A DNA stretch of 64,000 bases from a virus (taxonomy: Duplodnaviria > Heunggongvirae > Uroviricota > Caudoviricetes): positions 75,683-139,682 of the IMG/VR virus record IMGVR_UViG_2700989044_000001; one strand, given 5' to 3'. Under the pieces are notes generated by a model, which saw only the letters and a program-made list of their open reading frames with translations, did no database searches and was not told where the DNA came from. This document shows, in pieces, positions 2,163-17,654 of this stretch (position 1 is its first letter; each line of letters begins with the position of its first letter). Position numbers and translations under genes: made by a program.

Positions 2163-2510
2163 ATGTCAAAAGAAATAGGGAAGCAGGCGATAGTAACTGA
2201 TCATGGCAGTCGAAGAATAAAAGATAGACTAGGATTAAGCAAAAAAATAGCAGATAAGGTATCTCAAAAAGCGTTAGAGAACGGTGTTAGTCATAGTGAA
2301 ACAAAGGGTAGCTTTAAAAAATATATAGATGCTTTATATTTAAAACATAAAAAAGCTAATAATATTAAGATTTATCACAGAAAGATTTATTTGTTTAGAA
2401 ATGAAGTATTAATCACAGTATTAAATTTACCTAATAAATATTCTGTGGTTGCAGATAAATTACAAAGAATTAAAAACCAAGAGAAAGAAAAAACAAAAGA
2501 GTCTCAATGA
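2163..2510 (+). CDS. Basic hypothetical protein, weak resemblance to RelE/DUF4258-like small RNases
   Basis: TDHGSRRIKDRLG N-terminus and YLFRNEVLITV C-terminal strands; RBS ggggag. Confidence 0.4.
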   Translation: MSKEIGKQAIVTDHGSRRIKDRLGLSKKIADKVSQKALENGVSHSETKGSFKKYIDALYLKHKKANNIKIYHRKIYLFRNEVLITVLNLPNKYSVVADKLQRIKNQEKEKTKESQ

Positions 2511-2697
2511 CTCTTTTTTATTTTGAAAAATTTTCTAAAATATTTTGGTATTTTTTCATGAAATCCATCATACATTGTATTATAAAGAATTATTATTTAG
2601 TGTTATATTTTCAATAGTTTTTAATAATATTAGTAATTATAATAATTTGTCTTCTTTTAAGAAAAAGTGATATTTTAATAAATTTAAAGTAGAGGGA

Positions 2698-3003
2698 GTG
2701 GTGAGATTGTTATGTATAAATTGTTTGCAAAATGCTACAAATAAACTTATAGCAGATGACATTATCATCCTTGAATATTTGAATAATCAGGGGGCAACAA
2801 TTCCACAATGTACTATGTCAAGAGAAACTATAAAAGAAGAATTGAAGATGACAAATCATAAGTGTTATTCGTCAATTAGTCGTTTAGAATGTTTAGATAT
2901 GATTGAACGTAAAGTTGGTACAAAATCAAGTAGATATTTTATTACAAAGAATGGTCAACATGTTTTGTATTTGGTGAATGATAAATTACAGGAGGTTGAA
3001 TAA
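2698..3003 (+). CDS. Winged-helix DNA-binding protein, TubR-like partition adaptor
   Basis: ILEYL...SRETIKEEL...SISRLECLDMIERK...YFITKNG wHTH pattern; stop abuts tubZ start. Confidence 0.65.
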   Translation: MVRLLCINCLQNATNKLIADDIIILEYLNNQGATIPQCTMSRETIKEELKMTNHKCYSSISRLECLDMIERKVGTKSSRYFITKNGQHVLYLVNDKLQEVE

Positions 3004-4134
3004 ATGGCTGGTACTAAAATTGGTTTTCTTTGTTTTGGTGAAGGCGGTTCAAATGTTGGAGAGTATGCTGCTCAAAAAGGTTTTCCAGTAGTTGCAGTCA
3101 ATAGCGCTAAAATAGATTTAGAAAAAATAAAAATAATTCCAAAAGATTGTAGGATTCACTTGGATGGCTGGGAAGGTGCTGGCAGAAATAGAGATGTAGG
3201 TAGGGAAGCAGTTCTATCTCACGCAGAAACAATCTTTGAAAAGATAAAAGATAAATTTAAAGATTGTGACATGGTGTTTTCAGTAGCTTCAACAGCTGGC
3301 GGTACAGGTTCAGGATCTTTAGCGGTTGGTATCGAACTTCTTTCAGAAATAAATAGTAAAGTTGGAGCGATAACTATTTTGCCAGACAAAAATGAAAGCC
3401 CAAAAGCTCATATGAATTCTTTAGAATGTTTCTCTGAGTTAAGCCAATACGAACAATTGAATAGTACGTTTATCATTGATAATGAAAAAGCAAATCAAGT
3501 ATTTAAAGGCAAAGACAAAATTCAAATTTATCAATTATCTAATAATCAATTGATTGACAATTTAGCGGAAATATGCTCACTAACCGATCAACACGCTTTA
3601 GTTTCAAATTTTGATAAAAATGATCTACTTGAAATACTAAGTGAACGAGGAACCACTATAATTAGCAAGATAACAATACCAACAGAAGAATTGAAAGATG
3701 AAGTAGAAATTGTTAATGCAATTAGAAAATCTTGGGAAACTGTTTGTTCTTCTGACATTGGTGATGGGCAAATAGTAAAAGCTGGTGTATTTGGTAAAAT
3801 ACCAAAAGAATTAACTTCAATGATAGATTCAAGAAAAGTTTTTGAAGAAATTGGAATGCCATATGATATAATTGAATCTTACTATTTGAATACTGAACAC
3901 TCTAATCATTGTATTTTCTATACTATTCTTTCTGGATTATCCTACCCAATTGAAAGATTGAAACAAATAGAAAGTGAAGTACAGATGATTGAACAAGAAT
4001 TGATTAATAGAGTAGAAGTTTCTAGGACCCAAGTTTTTTCAACTAATAATTGGAACTCTAAGTTTAAACGACCTGAACAAAAACAAAATGTTAAAACATC
4101 GTTAAGTGATAGATTAACAAGATTTACTAAGTAA
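3004..4134 (+). CDS. tubZ: Tubulin/FtsZ-family GTPase, TubZ/RepX-like
   Basis: GFLCFGEGGSNV, GAGRNRDVG, tubulin signature AGGTGSG, IIDNEK, NFDKND T7-like loop. Confidence 0.9.
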   Translation: MAGTKIGFLCFGEGGSNVGEYAAQKGFPVVAVNSAKIDLEKIKIIPKDCRIHLDGWEGAGRNRDVGREAVLSHAETIFEKIKDKFKDCDMVFSVASTAGGTGSGSLAVGIELLSEINSKVGAITILPDKNESPKAHMNSLECFSELSQYEQLNSTFIIDNEKANQVFKGKDKIQIYQLSNNQLIDNLAEICSLTDQHALVSNFDKNDLLEILSERGTTIISKITIPTEELKDEVEIVNAIRKSWETVCSSDIGDGQIVKAGVFGKIPKELTSMIDSRKVFEEIGMPYDIIESYYLNTEHSNHCIFYTILSGLSYPIERLKQIESEVQMIEQELINRVEVSRTQVFSTNNWNSKFKRPEQKQNVKTSLSDRLTRFTK

Positions 4135-4140
4135 TATTTA

Positions 4141-4170
4141 ACAAGAGAGAATATTCTCTCTTGTTTTTTT
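4141..4170 (+). terminator. Terminator after tubZ
   Basis: Perfect 24-bp palindrome acaagagagaat/attctctcttgt plus T run. Confidence 0.75.
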
Positions 4171-4197: not shown

Positions 4198-5295
4198 TTG
4201 AAAAAAATCTACTTTTTTAAAGATGGGCATAAAGATATGCATAATTACTTGGGTAAAAAAGGCGCAAACCTATGCGAAATGTATAATATGGATTTGCCAG
4301 TACCAAATGGATTTATTATACCCACATACTTAAATAGAGAAACAAAAGAATTAAGAAGAGAAATAGAAAATGCAATTGAAAAACTTGGAGGTAGGTTAGG
4401 AGAAGATTTATTTGTTTCAGTACGTTCAAGTGCTCCCACCTCAATGCCAGGAATGATGGATAGTTTTTTGAATATAAGTAATTATGATGACTTATTTAAT
4501 TCTATAGAGCTAGTGGTTAATTCATGGAACAATAAAAGAGCTGTTACTTATAGGGAAAATAATGGTATCTCTGAAGGAGTGGGTACAGCTATAGTAATAC
4601 AAAAAATGATCTTTGGAAATAAAGACGAGAATTCTGGTTCTGGAGTTGTTTTTAGCAGAAATCCTAATAATGGAGAAGAAGGACTAGTCGGGGAGATATT
4701 GTTTAATTCTTTTGGTGAGGAATTAGTGCTTGGTAAAAAGACACCACTTTCAATTACTATATTAAAAGAAAAAATGCCCAACGTTTATACATTATTGGAA
4801 AATATATCAAAAAAGCTTGAAACTCATTTTTCATCTATGCAAGAAATAGAATTCACTATTGAAGAAAAAGAGTTATATGTATTGCAGACAAGAGAAGTAA
4901 AAAAGAAAAACAAAATAGTTAAGTTTAAAATAAAAGAAAAACAAAAAAATCCAATAACAATAGGTATAGCATCTTCTTATGGAGCGGCTACAGGGTTAGT
5001 TGTTTTTGATTCAAAGAAAGCAGTAGAATTAAAATCAAAAGGTAAAAACGTTATTTTAGTAAGACTTGAGACTAGTCCCGATGACATTGAGGGAATAATC
5101 GCTTGCGATGGCATTGTAACTTTACAGGGTGGAGCAACTTCTCATGCAGCTGTTGTTGCTAGAAGTATGAATAAGCCATGTATTTGTGGCTGTCAATACT
5201 TAGATGTAAATGAATTAGAATGGATAACAATTGAAGGTCAAACTGGTAAAGTTTTTCTCGGTGAGTACGATTTAGAAATAGATGATAGTCTATAA
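4198..5295 (+). CDS. PPDK-like protein: ATP-grasp plus phospho-His swivel domain, no C-terminal PEP/pyruvate barrel
   Basis: LGKKGANL, VSVRSSAPTSMPGMMD, QKMIFGN, EIEFTIE..LYVLQTR, ETSPDD, GGATSHAAVVAR; only 365 aa. Confidence 0.85.
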   Translation: MKKIYFFKDGHKDMHNYLGKKGANLCEMYNMDLPVPNGFIIPTYLNRETKELRREIENAIEKLGGRLGEDLFVSVRSSAPTSMPGMMDSFLNISNYDDLFNSIELVVNSWNNKRAVTYRENNGISEGVGTAIVIQKMIFGNKDENSGSGVVFSRNPNNGEEGLVGEILFNSFGEELVLGKKTPLSITILKEKMPNVYTLLENISKKLETHFSSMQEIEFTIEEKELYVLQTREVKKKNKIVKFKIKEKQKNPITIGIASSYGAATGLVVFDSKKAVELKSKGKNVILVRLETSPDDIEGIIACDGIVTLQGGATSHAAVVARSMNKPCICGCQYLDVNELEWITIEGQTGKVFLGEYDLEIDDSL

Positions 5296-9345: not shown

Positions 9346-9378
9346 AAAAAACCTCTTAGAAAAACTAAGAGGTTTTTT
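9346..9378. terminator. Bidirectional terminator between convergent genes
   Basis: aaaaaacctcttag-aaaaa-ctaagaggtttttt. Confidence 0.8.
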
Positions 9379-10201
9379 AAATTAGATTTTCAAATGTTGT
9401 AAAGTGACATTTTAAATCTGAAGAATGTTTATCTATGAACTTAGAATAGTAATTATTTAGTTTGCTAAGTCTCTTTCTGTCGTTTAAGATGAAAATTATT
9501 GGTATAGTTACAGGAGCTTCGAATGGTTGCCAATCGTGACACTTGAAGTCAGAGCTATTAAAAAAATAATTATGATAAGCATCTATCTTCTTGTTGAGTA
9601 CATCTTGATTTTCCGTAGATAAGTCAATTTCAAAAAATGCATAATTGTCGTTTTCATTGTTAAGCCAATATGAAAAACAATCTGGTCTAATTTCGTACTC
9701 TTTTGATCCTACAGAATACTTTAGTTTTATTTCTTGTTTCCAATCAAGTACTTCATATTTACTAGCTAACCCAGAAAATACCTCACTTACAGCAACAGTA
9801 TGTCTCCATTTTTGGTTTAATTTTTTAATAGGTCTGAATAGTTTTATATCTAATAGTTTTGATCCAGGTCTTGTTAGTACATAATGATATTCCGAAGAGC
9901 CTTCCCCTATGGATAATCTTGGAGAAAATCTATCTACACACCCTAATGAGAATAATTTTTTCATAGTTTTTAAAGTTGATTTATCTGGTGAGTTACTATC
10001 TGGATAAAATATCTTAGCTATTTGAGAAGTAGTAACTATTTTGTTCATGTTGATCATTTTGAGTATTTTGATATCTTTGTCATTAAGCCTAAGTTTAAGT
10101 TCGTTTATATAGTGAGCATTAGACTTTTTAACTGCTTCTTCGTGTAAATCTCTTAGCTTTCTATTCCTCTCCATTAATAGACAAACATCAGACGTAATCA
10201 T
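9377..10201 (-). CDS. Replication-relaxation (Replic_Relax) family relaxase-like protein
   Basis: N-terminal wHTH (IVTTSQIAKIF...LFSLGCV), GEGSSEYHYVLTRPG, RHTVAV, IRPD, FFEIDLSTE; the only long minus-strand gene, RBS aggagg on minus strand. Confidence 0.8.
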   Translation of the reverse strand: MITSDVCLLMERNRKLRDLHEEAVKKSNAHYINELKLRLNDKDIKILKMINMNKIVTTSQIAKIFYPDSNSPDKSTLKTMKKLFSLGCVDRFSPRLSIGEGSSEYHYVLTRPGSKLLDIKLFRPIKKLNQKWRHTVAVSEVFSGLASKYEVLDWKQEIKLKYSVGSKEYEIRPDCFSYWLNNENDNYAFFEIDLSTENQDVLNKKIDAYHNYFFNSSDFKCHDWQPFEAPVTIPIIFILNDRKRLSKLNNYYSKFIDKHSSDLKCHFTTFENLI

Positions 10202-10252
10202 AAATAACCTCCTTTTATTATATAGATATTCTAATTAATCAAAAATGATACC

Positions 10253-10383
10253 AGAAATTGGTTAATTTCTATGGTTAATTTCTTTTGATATTAACTGTGA
10301 TGTGTCTCCAACTATAAACAGTTGATGGATTTTTAAGGCGTGACCGTGCAAATCCTTCCTATCTCATTTTCAATGAGATGGAA
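10253..10383. repeat. Inverted/direct repeat cluster, candidate oriT or operator
   Basis: IR agaaatt-ggtt-aatttct (10253-10270); DR tggttaatttct x2 (10259, 10272); hairpin ttcc-t-atctcatt-ttc-aatgagat-ggaa (10356-10383). Confidence 0.45.
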
Positions 10384-10454
10384 CCTTGAGGAGGTTGGTG
10401 ATAAAAAAAATGAAAAATTTCTCAACGAAAAACTTTTTATTTTTTTGTGTCTCT

Positions 10455-10477
10455 TTTTTCGTCGTGGTGAATATAAT
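10455..10477 (+). promoter_or_regulatory. Putative promoter motif TTTTTC.TCGT..GTGAATATAAT (copy 1)
   Basis: Near-identical copy at 13105-13128; GTGAATATA also at 10762. Confidence 0.45.
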
Positions 10478-10513
10478 GAAAATATAACAAAGAAAAAAAG
10501 ATGGTGATAAATT

Positions 10514-10696
10514 TTGTTAGATAAAATAGAAGATTTAACTTTAGAATTTCTATTTGTTATTACTGATTTTGTTTATAAGATAGTAATTAACATAATAGAA
10601 AATTATATTGTTACAAGTGATGTCTGGCCAAAGTTGATTTTTGTAGGTATTATTTTCTGGATGTTTAAGAAGAAAAGAGTGGTGAGGAAAAAATAG
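10514..10696 (+). CDS. Small membrane protein at start of T4SS-like cluster
   Basis: Hydrophobic C-terminal helix followed by KKKR. Confidence 0.55.
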   Translation: MLDKIEDLTLEFLFVITDFVYKIVINIIENYIVTSDVWPKLIFVGIIFWMFKKKRVVRKK

Positions 10697-10810
10697 ATAA
10701 TTTCCTTATTATATAGGAAGGAAAAATAAATTTCTAATTCTTTGTAACATTTGATATTATTGTGAATATATTGATAATATAAGGTGGAAAATAAAAGGAG
10801 GAAACATAAC

Positions 10811-11269
10811 ATGGCTGAGTATTCGTTTGCTGATAGTAAATATGAGTCATTGGCTCAAGATTTAATTGATGCAGACCCAATTGATTTAGGTCATATCGAT
10901 GTTAGTGCAATTGCTTTTCTGAATAAAGAAGAGAAAAATCCAAAGTGGCCTTTTAGAATAATACCAATAAGAGAACCACTAACTATGTTAACTAAGTTTG
11001 AGTATTACGTTGAAATATGCGAATCACTATTAGAAAATGCAACTAAAGAACATATCGAATTACATATCTATAAAATTCTAAGACAAATTGATAAAGAGAG
11101 TGGAAGAATCATACATCCAAATGTTATTGAGTTTAGCGACATAATAGATTTGTTCGGTTATGACTGGCAAGAAAAGAAAATGTTACCTTCTATTATAGAT
11201 CAATTAGATGCAAAGACAGTTGCAAATACTTTGGTAGGTAACACTAGTGGACCGCCTAGCGTAATTTAA
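10811..11269 (+). CDS. Phage putative-metallopeptidase-like protein with degenerate zinc motif
   Basis: RBS aaggagg before ATG 10811; LHIYKILRQI...HPNVIEFSDII...YDW; paralog of 308-784. Confidence 0.5.
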   Translation: MAEYSFADSKYESLAQDLIDADPIDLGHIDVSAIAFLNKEEKNPKWPFRIIPIREPLTMLTKFEYYVEICESLLENATKEHIELHIYKILRQIDKESGRIIHPNVIEFSDIIDLFGYDWQEKKMLPSIIDQLDAKTVANTLVGNTSGPPSVI

Positions 11270-11288
11270 AATAAAGGAGAGAAGGTAA

Positions 11289-11753
11289 ATGAAAAAACAT
11301 TACGAAGTAGTCGGGACTATTGCGGAGTTAGATCTTAGGGAGTTAATAACTGAAAAAGAAAATAGCTTCGACGTTAATAAAGAAAAATTAAAGTTTATAG
11401 TTTCTGCAGCACTTTCAACTCTAATATTTTCATTAGTTTTTCAGGATCCATCTTTAGCAGCTAATGGTGAAATGATACAAACTGCTTCTTCCAATTTTAA
11501 AACTCCTACACAGTTAAATCACATACTGGAATTTGTTAGTTGGATAATCGATTTATTGAAATACATTTTATCGGGAATTGCAGGTTTAATTTGTACATTC
11601 GCTGGTTATAAGTGGGCTACATCTTTAGAAGGTAATGGCCAAGAAGCTGCTAAGAAAATTCTAAAGAATGCATTTGTAGGTGGCGTAATAGTTTGGACAG
11701 GTTCTTCAATAGCTGGATTCTTTGTGGATAAAATGAATGAAATATTAGGGTAG
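11289..11753 (+). CDS. VirB2/TrbC-like pilin
   Basis: Leader ending in PSLA, then two hydrophobic helices separated by EAAKKILKNAFVGGVIV. Confidence 0.7.
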   Translation: MKKHYEVVGTIAELDLRELITEKENSFDVNKEKLKFIVSAALSTLIFSLVFQDPSLAANGEMIQTASSNFKTPTQLNHILEFVSWIIDLLKYILSGIAGLICTFAGYKWATSLEGNGQEAAKKILKNAFVGGVIVWTGSSIAGFFVDKMNEILG

Positions 11754-11767
11754 TTTGGAGGGAGAAA

Positions 11768-11905
11768 ATGAGAGACCCATATAGTAAGATATTTGTTTAT
11801 ACAGTCGCAGGATTTTGCGGCGTTGCTGGTTTTATCATAACATATATTGCTATTGGTTATCTATTTAAGCCGGCGGAAACTTGGATTGAAAATAAAATGA
11901 GATAA
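11768..11905 (+). CDS. 45-aa single-TM protein (not in ORF track)
   Basis: RBS ggagggag; MRDPYSKIFVYTVAGFCGVAGFIITYIAIGYLFKPAETWIENKMR. Confidence 0.6.
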   Translation: MRDPYSKIFVYTVAGFCGVAGFIITYIAIGYLFKPAETWIENKMR

Positions 11906-11939
11906 AAAATAAAAATTGATAAAATAAGGGGGAAATTTA

Positions 11940-12089
11940 ATGTTTACTACTATTAGTGCAGTTGTTGGGACTGTTTTTCAATTTTATGTTGCCTCTAGAG
12001 TTTGCGTAGGTATTTTCAAAAATGTAAAAAACAAGTTAGAGAGTAATCAAGTTGAAAGTGAATCTCTAGACAGTAAGAAGGTGATTTAA
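11940..12089 (+). CDS. 49-aa hydrophobic-N-terminus protein (not in ORF track)
   Basis: RBS aaggggg; stop abuts GTG of VirB6-like gene. Confidence 0.55.
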   Translation: MFTTISAVVGTVFQFYVASRVCVGIFKNVKNKLESNQVESESLDSKKVI

Positions 12090-13049
12090 GTGGATTGGAG
12101 CTTAGGGATAACGGAATCTATTAAAAAAGAAGTCGGTGAAAGTTGGGAATTAATAAAAGAGAATATTGGAGATTTCTTCCTATATTTATCACAACAATTA
12201 CAAGAAGGAGCAAATAGTTTTTTAGCAGAAATGCTAGATTTCGTACTCTATACTCCTTTAGTAGCTGATAATGAAATCATTTTATCTATTTGGGCGACAG
12301 TTAGAATTATTTCATTTGCACTCATTGGTGTAATGTTCGTTTGGGAAGGATTTAAGAAAGTTATTTCAACCGACAATATTATAAGACATGTGGAGTTTAA
12401 AGAAATGTTTGTAAGGATGGTTTACGGAATAGTATTAGCTGTTTTTAGCTTAGACATTATTGATTTGATGATTAACTTTAACAATGTTTTAATCGATACA
12501 GTGAAAAGTTCTTTCCCAATGACATTAGAATCTAAGTTAAATATAAATGGAGTATTCAGCTTCCTTATGGTATTAGCTTTAGTAATAGTTCAAGTTGTAT
12601 TAGGAATAAAACTCGTCTTACAGTACTGGATGCGTATAGCAGAGATATGGCTCATGGCTGTATTAGGTCCTCTGGTATACGTACTATGGATAAACCCTGG
12701 CTCGAAATTAAGTGGAGTTTTATCGCAGTGGGTAAGCAGGCTTACAACTACAATATTTACTACATTCATATGGGCTTTAATTTTAGCAATTTATTCTGGT
12801 ATGGTGAGTATGATAGCTTCTGCTGGCATGTTAGCTGGTTTCCCTACTCTAGGTCCAATTGCAGGAATTTGTTTATCAATAGCCATGTTGCTAATTATGA
12901 TTGAAACACCAGCATTCTTAAGGAGTTTTATGGACAACCAACCTAATGCATTGCATTTAGTTAAGAAAGTTTATACCAACGTTAAATCAAGTACGCCTAT
13001 GGGGTTTGCTAATAAAGCTGCTGGATGGATACTACCTAGTAAAACGTAA
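12090..13049 (+). CDS. VirB6/TrbL-like polytopic membrane protein
   Basis: About 6 TMs; RIAEIWLMAVLGPLVYVLW...W motif; position between pilin and PrgI/VirB4. Confidence 0.75.
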   Translation: MDWSLGITESIKKEVGESWELIKENIGDFFLYLSQQLQEGANSFLAEMLDFVLYTPLVADNEIILSIWATVRIISFALIGVMFVWEGFKKVISTDNIIRHVEFKEMFVRMVYGIVLAVFSLDIIDLMINFNNVLIDTVKSSFPMTLESKLNINGVFSFLMVLALVIVQVVLGIKLVLQYWMRIAEIWLMAVLGPLVYVLWINPGSKLSGVLSQWVSRLTTTIFTTFIWALILAIYSGMVSMIASAGMLAGFPTLGPIAGICLSIAMLLIMIETPAFLRSFMDNQPNALHLVKKVYTNVKSSTPMGFANKAAGWILPSKT

Positions 13050-13071
13050 TTTATTTAAATTACGTTTTTTT
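13041..13071 (+). terminator. Terminator within T4SS cluster
   Basis: aaaacgtaattt-attt-aaattacgtttt plus T run. Confidence 0.6.
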
Positions 13072-13104
13072 ATTTTTTTAAATTATTTACCATATTTTAG
13101 GTCA

Positions 13105-13128
13105 TTTTTCATCGTTAGTGAATATAAT
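13105..13128 (+). promoter_or_regulatory. Putative promoter motif (copy 2)
   Basis: tttttcatcgttagtgaatataat, matches 10455-10477. Confidence 0.45.
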
Positions 13129-13153
13129 AATTATATAAGGAGGAGGAAATAAT

Positions 13154-13531
13154 ATGATAGAGAAAGAACCATTATGTGCTATACCAAGAAATTTAAATGA
13201 GCCAGATACTATTATCCACTATCCTGTAAAGTTAAATTGGAAACAAATTAGTTATATTTGCGTAGGTGTAGCGGGAGCATATTTTGCTTTTCAAACTGGG
13301 TTACCTATTGAATATAAAACTGCTTTAATGGCTGGTAGCGTTGGAACTTCATTAGTTACTAGTTTAATAAAATATGAAGATTCTACTATTGATGAATTGG
13401 TAATTGATAGTTTGCACTATGCTCAGAAGAAAAATATCTATAGACAACTAGAGAAACGAGGTGCAATGAATGTCAAATTCAACTCTTATGAAGAAAAAAT
13501 CACCGGAGATTATGCCTTTTCAGAGTTCTAG
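13154..13531 (+). CDS. prgI: PrgI/VirB3-like membrane protein
   Basis: IPRNLNEPD.I..P..LNWKQISY N-terminus, two TMs, overlaps virB4 start. Confidence 0.7.
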   Translation: MIEKEPLCAIPRNLNEPDTIIHYPVKLNWKQISYICVGVAGAYFAFQTGLPIEYKTALMAGSVGTSLVTSLIKYEDSTIDELVIDSLHYAQKKNIYRQLEKRGAMNVKFNSYEEKITGDYAFSEF

Positions 13532-15161
13532 TCTCCGCAAAGTATTAAAGGTTTCATCAGTCAATTTAGGGTTTAAATCCTACAATGATAAACTTGCTAT
13601 TGTTGAAAATTTCGGTAGATTTTTAAACTCTTTAACTCATCCTATACAAATAGTTAGTGATACAAAGTTGATAAATCCAGATGAATGGCTATTAAAAATG
13701 CCAGATCAAGATTATTATGAATTCTTAAAAGACTTAGTAAACTCTAGTAATGTTTCAGAGAAAATATTTTACATAGCTTATACTGCGCAAGATGAGTCAG
13801 AATTAAAGATAATAACAGATGCTTTAAGGAGTGGAATTAAAAGGTGTCGTCTATTGGCAGAAGAAGTTGAACCCGAAATTTCACAAAGCATACCAGTGCT
13901 TAAACCAGGACATGTTAAAGTTGGTGATTGGTATAATCATACTTTGATAGTAAAGAATTGGCCACATAGCTGCGTATCGGGTTGGTTAGAAAACCTGTAC
14001 AATTTAGACAAAAACATAACTTTATCAATGTTTATAGAGCCACAAAATAAACAAGATTCTATTAAATACATTAGCAAGAGACTAGCAAGATTGCAATCTA
14101 ACTCAATTATTAAAGATAAAGAAAATAAAACTAATGGCGAAGAAGATGAAAGTATTGCAACTGGTCTAAATATGAGAGAAGAACTAATGAGAAATGAAGG
14201 TAATTTCTTTTTCGTTAGTTATTACATTACTGTTAAAGCAAAAAGTTTAGAACAATTAAAAAGAGATACAAAATTTGTAAAAACTATTTTAAACGGAATG
14301 ATGATTGAAACGTCTAAAGCTACTTTAAGACATGATGATGGATATAGATGTTCACTCCCACTTATGCAAAATAACCTTCGTTCTAAAGCTGCGTATACAT
14401 TCACAACTACCCCACTAAAGAGATTTTTCCCTTTTATGTCTGCTAATATAGTTGATAAAGGCGGAATAATGATTGGTAGCAATTTATTAAATAATTCATT
14501 AATTTTCTTAGATCACTTTAGTTATTCAACAGCGAGTATGGTTGTTATAGGAAAGACTGGTTCTGGTAAATCATTTACTGTAAAAGCTCAAATAGATAAG
14601 CTGGTAAAACAGGGAGTGGAAGTAACTGTTTTAGATATAGAAAAAGAATTTGATAGGATGCAAAAGCATAAGAATTTAATAGTAAAACACTTTGGGACCA
14701 AGGTTGAACAGTACAAACAATTCTTATTTGACTATTGGGAAGAAGTAAATAATGGACCTAAAAAACCAAGATTTTTAGTAATTGATGAGTTTTGGAGCTA
14801 TAAAAAAGATCCGGAAATAGCTGATTTATTGCAAAAAATGGCTAAGTTAGGAAGAAAGAGATGGTTAGGTATTTGTCCGATTACTCAAGAAGTAAATGAT
14901 ATGTTAAGTGATGAATTCTCTAAGAGTCTAATAAATAATTCCAGTATAAAAATTATTTTACAAATTGATCCTAATCAAAGAAAATTAGTACAAGAAACTT
15001 TTGGTTTGACAGATTCTGAAGTATCTTTCTTAATTGGTGCATCTGAGGGTGAAGGAATATTGTTCGCAGGTACAAATCATGTGCAATTTAAAACAATTGT
15101 ATCAGATAAACAATATGCGCAAATAACGACAAAGCCACAGGAGTTATATCAAGTTAGTTAA
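13470..15161 (+). CDS. virB4: VirB4-like ATPase (compact)
   Basis: Walker A VIGKTGSGKS, Walker B LVIDEFW, RKRW...ITQEV.D, GASEGEG, N-terminal FFVSYYITV segment. Confidence 0.85.
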   Translation: MSNSTLMKKKSPEIMPFQSSSLRKVLKVSSVNLGFKSYNDKLAIVENFGRFLNSLTHPIQIVSDTKLINPDEWLLKMPDQDYYEFLKDLVNSSNVSEKIFYIAYTAQDESELKIITDALRSGIKRCRLLAEEVEPEISQSIPVLKPGHVKVGDWYNHTLIVKNWPHSCVSGWLENLYNLDKNITLSMFIEPQNKQDSIKYISKRLARLQSNSIIKDKENKTNGEEDESIATGLNMREELMRNEGNFFFVSYYITVKAKSLEQLKRDTKFVKTILNGMMIETSKATLRHDDGYRCSLPLMQNNLRSKAAYTFTTTPLKRFFPFMSANIVDKGGIMIGSNLLNNSLIFLDHFSYSTASMVVIGKTGSGKSFTVKAQIDKLVKQGVEVTVLDIEKEFDRMQKHKNLIVKHFGTKVEQYKQFLFDYWEEVNNGPKKPRFLVIDEFWSYKKDPEIADLLQKMAKLGRKRWLGICPITQEVNDMLSDEFSKSLINNSSIKIILQIDPNQRKLVQETFGLTDSEVSFLIGASEGEGILFAGTNHVQFKTIVSDKQYAQITTKPQELYQVS

Positions 15162-15176
15162 GGAAGGAGTGTAATT

Positions 15177-17654
15177 GTGTTTAGTAAAAAAATTGAATAT
15201 CCTAAAGATAGTATTGTCATTAAATTGGAGAATGATATTGAATCTACTCATGATGATAGATCTAGTGAGGTTGAGAGTTTTTGGTCTAGTATTCATGGGT
15301 TACAAGATAAAAAAGAGCGACCAACATTTTCTTTTGAGATATTAAGTGACAAAAAAGGAGCAGCTTTTTATCTAGCTATACCTAAAAGATTTCAAAGTAT
15401 AATTGGTAAAAAGTTAAATGCAGTTTATCCATATATAGAAATTAAAGAAGTTGCTGATCCAGTTAAAGAGTTTAGTCCTAAGATAGATGAACACGTTTAT
15501 AGTTGTGAGTTAAAGTTAACAAATCATGAATCTTTTAATTTAAAGACATCGGGTTTAAGTAAGACATTTTTAAATAATTTATTAAATACTATGAACCATT
15601 TTAATGAGGATGATTCATCATTAGTGCAAATTTTAATAAAACCGTTACCAGAATCTTGGAATCATAAAGCTCAAAGAAATTCAACTAGAGCAAGGGCAAA
15701 AAGTTTTCATAGTTCAAATCCAATTGTAAAAGGATTAATGTTGATAGTAGATTTACTAGTAAGCTCGGTAATGTTAGTACTTGATTCAACAGTTACTAAT
15801 GGACAACTTAAAAAATCATTTAAAGAAGTATCCGCAACAACTACTAAAACAGAAAAAGATGATAAATTTTCAAAACCCTGTTTTAATGTTTCAGTTAGGA
15901 TTGCATCTAAATCAAAAGATGCAATTGTAGCAGAACAAACAGCTAAGAGTATATCAACAGTGTTCCAAAATTTAGATAGTGAAAACAAACTAAGACCTAA
16001 AAAAATAACTTTTAAATCTATAGAAGAAAGGTTTGAAGAACCAAAGACATTTAAAAATAGCGCGTTAAATGTACAAGAAATGTCCCAGTTTATACATTTA
16101 CCTGGGAAAGGTGTATCCGCTGATAATGTCGGTAAAGGAAATGTAAAAATGCCATATGACAAAAATGTTCCATCTAAAGGAATAGTTTTTGGATATAGCC
16201 CGCAAAAAGATAATAAACCTGTTGCTTTCCCTATGAAAGTTATTTCTTTAGAAAAATACGACGAATTATATGACGAATATGAAAAGCTAATCGATAACTT
16301 ATGTAAGCCTAGATTGGTTTTAGGTCAAATGGGTACTGGGAAAAGTGAGTGGGTAGTTAATTATACTCTTAGTTTAATTAATGCGGGACTATCTGTAATT
16401 ATTGTAGATCCTAAAAATGATACTCAAGAAAGGTTAATACAATCAATATCTGAAGATAAAATAGATAAAATTGACTACTTAAATTTAGGAGATTTAATAT
16501 TCCCTCCTGGTATGAATCTGCTGAGACGTAGAAACCCTGGCGACCCAACTGAAATATCATTAATTGTACAATCTTTAATAAGCTTCTTTAAGAAAGAATT
16601 TGGACGTTCGTGGGGCTTTGCGATGCAGCAATTAATTATGATGACTGGTAATGCTATCTTATTAGATGAAGTCGCAACTCTATACGAATTCCAATTAATG
16701 TTAACTAATAAAGAGTATAGAGCAAAAATGATAGACAAGATAGAAGCGAAAATAGCTGAAAACTCTGGTGGTAAAGCAATGTTAAAAGAGTTACTACAAT
16801 TCTGGAAACAGTTTCATAGTTGGCCAGAAAAAAATCAAATGGATCGCATTAGTTCCACAATGAATAAGATAGGCGTATTTATGAGTAATAGAATTGTAAG
16901 AGCTATAGTGTCTCAAGAAGAAAGTTATGATTTTAGAAAAGCTGGAGATAATGGAAGAATAACTATTGTTAATATTCCTGATGGAGAATTGCAAGATGAA
17001 AATAGAGAACTATTAGCATCATTTATAAATAAAGCTATTTGGTTAGATTTCCGTTCGCGAGCATCTATGCCTATAAGAAAACGTTATCCAACTATGTGGT
17101 TAATTGAAGAAGCACACATGGTTATGGATACTGAATTTATACCTGTCTTAACTCAATCTCGTGGATATCGTTTAGGCGTAACAGTATTAACTCAAGGCTT
17201 AACGAACTTTGATAATAAAGGTATGAGTGAACTTAAAGATTTAATTTTAACTAACTGCAAAAATAAAGTAGTTTTCCGTGTTGGGCCACAAGATGCTCGC
17301 GCATTAGCGGAAGAATTCTCTCCACTTACTTCATATGATTTAATGAATTGTCCAGATTATCATTTCTATTCTAAGATACTACTTGAAGATGGTAAAGTTT
17401 CAGATGTGTTCTTTGCGAATTCACCACCAGTAGCACCTGAATTAAGAGATTATCAGAAATACAAAGAAGCAAGTAGATCTGGTAAATATACAATAGATGA
17501 AATAGAGGATAGACTAGATTCAAGACATAACTTAGAAGATACATCTTCTATAATGAATTTAGGTTTATCTATGGAAGAGGAAAAAACAATTGTTAAAGAA
17601 GAAAAACCTAAAAAGAGAAGGGCTAAGCCAGGTCTAGAGTTTTTAGATAATTAA
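15177..17654 (+). CDS. virD4: VirD4/TraD-like coupling ATPase
   Basis: Walker A LVLGQMGTGKS, IIVDPKND, Walker B LIEEAH, SRGYRLGVTVLTQ, NKVVFRVG..DA. Confidence 0.8.
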   Translation: MFSKKIEYPKDSIVIKLENDIESTHDDRSSEVESFWSSIHGLQDKKERPTFSFEILSDKKGAAFYLAIPKRFQSIIGKKLNAVYPYIEIKEVADPVKEFSPKIDEHVYSCELKLTNHESFNLKTSGLSKTFLNNLLNTMNHFNEDDSSLVQILIKPLPESWNHKAQRNSTRARAKSFHSSNPIVKGLMLIVDLLVSSVMLVLDSTVTNGQLKKSFKEVSATTTKTEKDDKFSKPCFNVSVRIASKSKDAIVAEQTAKSISTVFQNLDSENKLRPKKITFKSIEERFEEPKTFKNSALNVQEMSQFIHLPGKGVSADNVGKGNVKMPYDKNVPSKGIVFGYSPQKDNKPVAFPMKVISLEKYDELYDEYEKLIDNLCKPRLVLGQMGTGKSEWVVNYTLSLINAGLSVIIVDPKNDTQERLIQSISEDKIDKIDYLNLGDLIFPPGMNLLRRRNPGDPTEISLIVQSLISFFKKEFGRSWGFAMQQLIMMTGNAILLDEVATLYEFQLMLTNKEYRAKMIDKIEAKIAENSGGKAMLKELLQFWKQFHSWPEKNQMDRISSTMNKIGVFMSNRIVRAIVSQEESYDFRKAGDNGRITIVNIPDGELQDENRELLASFINKAIWLDFRSRASMPIRKRYPTMWLIEEAHMVMDTEFIPVLTQSRGYRLGVTVLTQGLTNFDNKGMSELKDLILTNCKNKVVFRVGPQDARALAEEFSPLTSYDLMNCPDYHFYSKILLEDGKVSDVFFANSPPVAPELRDYQKYKEASRSGKYTIDEIEDRLDSRHNLEDTSSIMNLGLSMEEEKTIVKEEKPKKRRAKPGLEFLDN

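Follow-up and report, generated by a model that had tools for sequence, protein, structure and literature searches.

The segment at positions 2511-4165 of the window, by which we mean the whole 64,000-nucleotide stretch of DNA that was analysed, very probably (at a rough probability of 80%) constitutes a self-contained tubR-tubZ operon, a cytomotive module for DNA positioning of the type III (TubZRC-like) kind, which a clade of G-like jumbo phages has conserved by vertical descent. The window corresponds to bases 75,683-139,682 of a 497,513-bp linear virus record with a genome GC content of 29.9%, and the source virus is the Bacillus/Lysinibacillus megaphage G, the genome of which has been published (497.5 kb; JN638751; PMC6212462). 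In the published record the GTPase of this segment is annotated as "FtsZ/tubulin-like", carries the CetZ KO K22222 and is described as 'more bacterial than phage-like' (PMC12484599); the same paper contains no TubR, and the searchable literature gives the phage G GTPase without its partner. The present analysis corrects the published annotation from FtsZ/CetZ-like to TubZ and adds a TubR partner that was previously unnoticed.

Work on phage tubulins has until now concerned two cases, PhuZ and the TubZRC system of c-st, a phage of Clostridium botulinum. PhuZ needs no adaptor and, in virulent jumbo phages of Gram-negative bacteria, pushes a nucleus with a protein shell; TubZRC partitions the plasmid prophage c-st. 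In phage G and its relatives, an adaptor-dependent TubZRC machinery is found in a very large phage that has never been seen to lysogenize, and the unusual points of the case are that tubC is not recognizable and that the phage carrying the module has no known lysogeny. Phage G offers a cultivable system for the role of a centromere-type tubulin motor in infection, as well as a test for a hidden episomal or spore-borne megaphage state and for the look of an iteron-less tubC.

Layout of the operon and its signals

The features of the cassette are collected in Table 1. The two genes abut each other: the tubZ ATG stands immediately after the tubR stop codon, TAA at 3001-3003, and the ribosome-binding site of tubZ, AGGAGG at 2990-2995, lies inside tubR, 9 nt upstream of the start, an arrangement that amounts to classic translational coupling. 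A ribosome-binding site, GAGGGAG at 2692-2698, also precedes the tubR open reading frame (2698/2707-3003), of which TTG 2707 is the best spaced and likely start; the recorded protein has 98 aa, and GTG 2698 and GTG 2701 are the alternative starts. The initial annotation had described a wHTH gene coupled to a tubulin-signature GTPase, preceded by an AT-rich region of 187 bp and followed by a terminator, and each of these elements was recovered. The spacer, with 16% GC as against 29.9% in the genome, belongs to the lowest 0.1% of 187-bp windows, and terminator-like hairpins occur at three sites in the region scanned versus 0.5 expected, the hairpin after tubZ having both the stem and the T-run of an intrinsic terminator.

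The promoter candidate within the spacer falls below the threshold of the promoter/terminator scan. Clearer versions stand at the same place in the relatives, TTGACA-17-TATAAA in contig L003 and TGGTATAAT in contig L002, and the sequence at 2647-2676 in phage G may represent a host-type promoter.

Table 1. Features of the tubR-tubZ cassette of phage G (window coordinates)
Feature	Positions	Strand	Basis
Intrinsic terminator of the upstream gene (2163-2510), left edge of the cassette	2495-2517	+	9-bp stem, 3 GC pairs, T-run
AT-rich intergenic region, presumed promoter/operator and canonical place of tubC	2511-2697	+	GC 0.16
Conserved non-coding block common to contig L003 (5504-5583)	2511-2602	+	Local alignment score 51 versus maximum 38 in 200 shuffles
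Weak sigma-A-like promoter candidate	2647-2676	+	TTGTCT, ~18 nt, TGaTATTTT extended -10; read from sequence
tubR, 98-aa winged-helix centromere-binding-protein homologue	2707-3003	+	Profile, model, structure match
tubZ, 376-aa tubulin/FtsZ-fold GTPase, translationally coupled to tubR	3004-4134	+	Pfam, PDB, model, trees
Tubulin signature (G-box/T4 loop) AGGTGSG, residues 98-104	3295-3315	+	G99-G104 invariant in 16 G-like sequences
T7 (catalytic/synergy) loop SNFDKND, residues 201-207	3604-3624	+	S201, N202, F203, D204 and D207 invariant
C-terminal extension, presumed TubR-docking tail	3949-4131	+	Model secondary structure/pLDDT, alignment
Intrinsic terminator closing the two-gene operon	4140-4165	+	11-bp stem, 4-nt loop, T-run

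Identity and phylogenetic position of the two proteins

The TubR-TubZ (type III partition-like) identity that had been proposed for the pair is well supported at the level of sequence, profile and fold as well as by phylogeny and the conservation of gene order. The larger protein matched Pfam Tubulin at 4.5e-17, and its best matches in the PDB were the TubZ/RepX of B. cereus (4ei7; 2.5e-21) and c-st TubZ (1.5e-14); FtsZs reached 1e-11 at best, and a PhuZ structure was not among the sequence matches at E <= 1. The best PHROG was phrog_17961, which was shown to be the c-st TubZ family; the PhuZ PHROG (phrog_4733) gave 1.7e-6 only, and pBM400 TubZ behaves alike. The model of the protein (pLDDT 87.6) shows a two-domain tubulin fold, and its top Foldseek match was again 4ei7 (TM 0.79 over 368 columns), with c-st TubZ also among the best matches and CetZ structures among the good ones. 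The T1 loop GEGGSN, the G-box AGGTGSG and the T7 loop SNFDKND, NxDxxD being the T7-loop pattern of FtsZ/TubZ, are invariant in 16 relatives at 42-72% identity. The C-terminal extension is composed of a helix of 27 residues (316-342), a disordered basic linker (343-366) and a short terminal helix (367-374), and in the alignment the linker varies and the terminal motif SLxxRLxKF is conserved. By analogy with TubZ-Bt and with c-st (PMC5322520), this tail is presumed to dock TubR.

The assignment of the 98-aa protein as the TubR adaptor, a small winged-helix protein of ~10 kDa, is well supported. The single sequence matched pBM400 TubR (4asn) in the PDB with an E value of 2e-3, and a profile constructed from the aligned ORFs that immediately precede TubZ homologues on related viral contigs gave four best PDB matches that were all TubR, from pBM400 (2.1e-9), c-st (6.6e-5) and pBtoxis (8e-4 and 1.4e-3). 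The AF2 model (pLDDT 90.3) has a winged-helix topology, in agreement with the earlier description of the gene, and its top Foldseek match was 4asn_A from pBM400, with a TM of 0.79/0.86 and an rmsd of 0.9 Å over 81 columns, the generic ArsR/MarR winged-helix proteins being far behind with rmsd values of 2-5 Å. When the profile was compared with 1.84 billion protein representatives, 315 small-protein cluster representatives matched, including clusters with 52% identity to the TubR of pBM400 and others with 37-41% identity to that of c-st. The NCBIfam search yielded no TubZ- or TubR-specific match for either protein.

Two maximum-likelihood trees, in which the GTPase was compared with TubZ, RepX and PhuZ, were obtained by a quick IQ-TREE search with SH-aLRT support, and their branches are long. 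In both trees phage G TubZ belongs to an 18-19-member 'G-like' clade with 98-99% support, located within a 96-97% clade that contains all of the reference TubZs and PhuZs. The latter clade leaves out E. coli FtsZ and the CetZ-like proteins of haloarchaea and Dehalococcoidia, the separation being supported at 96-100%. The five PhuZs form a 100% clade of their own without G-like proteins, and the sisters of the G-like clade, at weak nodes of 80-84%, are a TubZ-like protein of a Pontibacillus megaplasmid and the RepX/pBtoxis group. As judged from these sequence trees, the phage G GTPase is inside the TubZ radiation, with its exact sister weakly supported, and the published FtsZ/CetZ-like label should on this placement be refined to TubZ. 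Since the protein is not a member of the PhuZ clade, the contrast that had been drawn with PhuZ, which works without TubR, is likewise upheld.

Membership of the GTPase in FtsZ/CetZ was rejected by the trees and by the TIGR00065 score, and the FtsZ equivalog was ruled out with 63.9 bits versus a cut-off of 295.2. It is accordingly very improbable that the GTPase disturbs or replaces the division or shape cytoskeleton of the host in the manner of a CetZ or FtsZ. The assigned KO K22222 (PMC12484599), the good fold matches to CetZ structures and the weak match to TIGR00065 would be in keeping with such host manipulation, but a score of 63.9 bits against a cut-off of 295 and a separation of 96-100% in the trees argue against it, and the presence of a TubR partner and of a C-terminal helix of the TubZ type agrees with TubZ.

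Conserved gene order and comparison with known systems

Relatives of the GTPase at 42-72% identity were found on contigs of up to 300 kb, the closest being P0004-P0013 at 65-72% identity. On three IMG/VR contigs of 110-175 kb (L002, L003 and L004), a TubR homologue that is 29-52% identical abuts TubZ, and the upstream order of a metallopeptidase-like gene, a thymidine kinase gene and a PHROG 16724 gene is kept; in L003 the downstream virion-protein genes are also kept in order. Two shorter metagenome loci (L143 and L144) carry a TubR-like ORF upstream of TubZ, and the metagenome scan supplied a single further G-like locus, a partial one, in addition to those of IMG/VR. The cassette lies among genes for nucleotide metabolism and for the virion, which G-like phages conserve, and the conserved order and neighbours in related contigs indicate an inherited, maintained module and not a recent plasmid insertion. 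The same observations make it extremely improbable that the cassette is an inert relic of a captured plasmid module: although its homologues are mostly plasmid-borne and no cis site was found, both ORFs are intact, the catalytic residues are invariant in the 16 sequences at 42-72% identity, and gene order and coupling are kept in diverged jumbo-phage contigs.

Homologues were present in 227 plasmid records, 190 of them from Bacillus and 18 from Priestia. In INPHARED, searched by megablast and by tblastn with phage G TubZ, c-st and D-1873 were the sole phage records (3e-5), and a pattern-dependent scan of 185,579 species genomes gave no close relatives, only FtsZ/CetZ-like proteins at 22-33% identity.

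Among the known systems, pBM400 of Priestia megaterium resembles phage G in that a tubR of 98-101 aa abuts or overlaps a tubZ of 374-376 aa, and a B. pumilus plasmid, together with pBM400, shares with phage G the pair of 98-101-aa and 370-376-aa genes. The TubR of pBM400 is the best profile and fold match to phage G TubR, and the two TubZs are 28-29% identical over 94% of the length. However, the two TubZs form separate subclades in the trees, and the plasmid has a repeat-containing centromere upstream (PMC6009700), whereas phage G is without detectable iterons. The pXO1-like TubZ/RepX (4ei7) is the best match to phage G TubZ in both sequence and fold, and the pXO1-like/pBtoxis TubZ group, which falls weakly with the G-like clade, likewise has a small wHTH gene upstream. 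The TubZs of this group, the role of which is plasmid replication and stability, comprise 435-484 aa versus 376 aa in phage G, with ~25% identity, and they have a MerR-type TubY neighbour (HTH and coiled coil) that phage G lacks.

c-st carries the only phage-borne TubR-TubZ system that has been studied experimentally (PMC6009700; Oliva et al. 2012, cited in PMC12484599). The TubZs of c-st and phage G have a common PHROG family signal and ~31% identity, in the N-terminal half only. c-st is a 186-kb plasmid prophage whose split tubC spans 350 bp and consists of 5-bp iterons, with TubY downstream, whereas phage G is 497.5 kb in size, has no known lysogeny and is without TubY, and its tubC was not found. 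The PhuZs of the nucleus-forming (chimallin) jumbo phages phiKZ and 201phi2-1 are, like phage G TubZ, jumbo-phage tubulins of the same broad clade, but they work without TubR, whereas phage G has a coupled TubR gene.

Candidate cis site and possible role in infection

All of the TubZRC systems studied have tubC direct repeats upstream of tubR (PMC6009700). The initial annotation had seen no clear iterons in phage G, and the repeat searches agree with it: the repeat finder and TRF detected no significant direct or inverted repeats in 2511-2697 or in the whole cassette, k-mer counts with mismatches in 2511-2697 gave no repeat family above 100 dinucleotide shuffles, and the A/T-tract phasing of the same spacer is unremarkable versus other AT-rich windows. 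In L002, the distance between the upstream gene and tubR is about 77 bp, which is too short for a canonical upstream centromere. The sole cis lead is the block shared with L003, which contains four ATTTT(G/C) words spaced ~10 bp apart (2520-2557), has ATTATTATTTAGTG at its end and lies upstream of the promoter-like hexamers in both phage G and L003; as a possible operator or site of TubR binding, this block of ~90 bp appears to be the best candidate. The iterons of c-st are 5 bp long and were not recognizable by eye before footprinting (PMC6009700), so that phage G may also harbour a cryptic tubC.

The rest of the genome was searched for related elements. As a genome-wide promoter or box family the 14-mer ATTATTATTTAGTG was rejected, with four copies in 497 kb that are mostly in CDS and have no common context. 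The whole phage G genome gave no match to c-st TubY, and the sole MerR-like ORF encodes 102 aa and lies about 74 kb from the cassette; TubY is not universal, none being annotated beside pBM400 tubRZ. Eleven AATAGATAGA repeats form an array at 483.5 kb of the genome.

We lean towards genome positioning in productive infection as the role of the module. The operon would be transcribed from the host-type promoter in the AT-rich spacer, and a TubR winged-helix dimer would coat phage DNA, likeliest from the ~90-bp block upstream of the promoter, where it may also autoregulate. TubZ, with its tubulin fold and catalytic loops, would polymerize with GTP into dynamic filaments, the tail helix of which is predicted to capture TubR-DNA, and filament growth or treadmilling would then move or space the 0.5-Mb genomes in the large host cell, as homology suggests. 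Virion proteomics of phage G did not detect the GTPase (PMC12484599), as expected of a non-structural protein.

The main alternative is a PhuZ-like use, in which the filaments centre a replication factory or traffic capsids without a centromere and TubR is an autorepressor only. A part in lytic infection is established for jumbo-phage tubulins (PMC7950403), plasmid TubR represses its own operon (PMC6009700), and the lack of iterons agrees with such a use, which we regard as possible but on balance doubtful. Against it speak the position of phage G TubZ beyond the PhuZ clade and its higher score with the c-st TubZ family, as well as the strict co-inheritance and coupling of TubR with TubZ throughout the G-like clade. 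The end of the tail also keeps a conserved motif typical of partner docking; moreover, phage G served as a comparison phage outside the chimallin-encoding family (PMC10299810).

The initial annotation had taken the cassette, together with the relaxase and the T4SS, to suggest either a plasmid-like (carrier or pseudolysogenic) state or active genome positioning. The conjugation locus is indeed nearby, with a Replic_Relax gene at 9377-10201 on the minus strand, and with T4SS pilin-like, TrbL-like and VirB4-like ORFs at 11289-15161. If the module served partition in a plasmid or carrier state, genomes would be segregated as low-copy episomes at division or into forespores during pseudolysogeny, in the way that TubZRC serves the plasmid prophage c-st. 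This relaxase and T4SS-like cluster, ~5 kb downstream in the same window, fits such a state, as does the Replic_Relax gene that follows repX on a B. thuringiensis plasmid; further points in its favour are the homology to plasmid and c-st partition systems and, in phage G, the many sporulation-related genes and the 'temperate' call of a lifestyle predictor (PMC12484599). The state is nevertheless unlikely, because 50 years of cultivation have not revealed lysogeny and no prophage copy is present in the host (PMC12484599), neither a centromere nor TubY was found, and the neighbours of the cassette are nucleotide-metabolism and virion genes and not plasmid-maintenance genes. With the conserved phage neighbours and with no centromere or TubY, the plasmid-like part of the initial proposal finds no support here, and active genome positioning is the more economical reading.

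It is also conceivable, although quite unlikely, that in a clade of G-like phages the tubulin motor is tethered by TubR but has no canonical iteron centromere close to the operon, and that it positions or partitions the 0.5-Mb genomes, possibly into forespores in a cryptic carrier state. With such a motor, TubR might load at the short conserved block, spread non-specifically or use a remote array, such as that at 483.5 kb (AATAGATAGA x11). If true, this would be the first DNA-tethered tubulin system serving a phage without known lysogeny.

The TubR of phage G has a CxxC motif at residues 3-6. An N-terminal CxxC is a trait of the G-like clade, is missing from the aligned segment of pBM400 TubR and could give a metal- or redox-dependent dimer contact.

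Repeat arrays outside the window

The direct-repeat array in the phage G genome (see the table) lies in a noncoding region of approximately 900 bp close to the right genome end, and five of its 11 copies of AATAGATAGA have the form TAATAGATAGAAT. On that strand, the 10-mer of this array occurs just three further times across the 497 kb. The array is a candidate site for loading proteins, such as an origin or a centromere. Its neighbours, which comprise unknowns, a GNAT-like 537-amino-acid ORF and a CII/HTH_3-like regulator, are uninformative. The second repeat region, at 371 kb, is A-rich, spans approximately 1.6 kb without ORFs and shows repeat periods of 22–41; it looks like an origin or a promoter cluster.

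Features of phage G in window or whole-record (genome) coordinates; L199 and L200 are stretches of the phage G genome outside the window
Feature	Position	Remarks
TubR CxxC motif, M(L/F/I)CxxC(L/I)	window 2713-2724	TubR residues 3-6; kept in the G-like TubR subfamily
PPDK-like kinase, truncated	window 4198-5295	Pfam PPDK_N and PEP-utilizers; PHROG 18609
Replic_Relax (replication-relaxation) gene	within window 9377-17654	minus strand
T4SS pilin-like, TrbL-like and VirB4/TraG-type ATPase ORFs	within window 9377-17654	after Replic_Relax
Direct-repeat array of AATAGATAGA	genome 483,482-483,853 (L199:3482-3853)	outside window; 11 copies in 370 bp
Degenerate CATATATA(G)AAA-type repeats	genome 371,330-371,760 (L200:1330-1760)	outside window; densely packed

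The N-terminal CxxC motif of TubR

An N-terminal CxxC is present in 56 of the 150 best TubR-profile matches, whereas the TubR of the Priestia megaterium plasmid pBM400, unlike G-like TubR, is without it in its aligned part. Paired in a TubR dimer, two copies of the motif could form a Cys4 metal site.

Gene order around tubR-tubZ and in related replicons

The tight tubR-tubZ coupling of phage G is not universal, since extra sequence splits the pair in two more distant G-like metagenome loci: an ORF of approximately 35 codons intervenes in L143 (155-250) and approximately 480 bp in L144 (388-874). Downstream of tubZ, the PPDK-like kinase is reduced to the nucleotide-binding and phospho-His domains, the PHROG profile having a length of 685; of the G-like jumbo phage contigs, L002 carries a 743-amino-acid ORF in this position after tubZ, and in L003 it is missing. 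On plasmid p01 of Bacillus thuringiensis HD-771 (L058) a Replic_Relax gene likewise comes after repX, and TubZ and Replic_Relax are thus found together on both replicons, phage G and p01.

The IMG/VR contigs L005–L016 (23–40 kb) make up a large set of short sequences of viral or plasmid-like character. In them, a TubR related to that of the Clostridium botulinum phage c-st (88–90 amino acids, PHROG 17403) overlaps a TubZ of 350–361 amino acids, which suggests frequent carriage of TubZRC by small phage-plasmids that have not been cultured.
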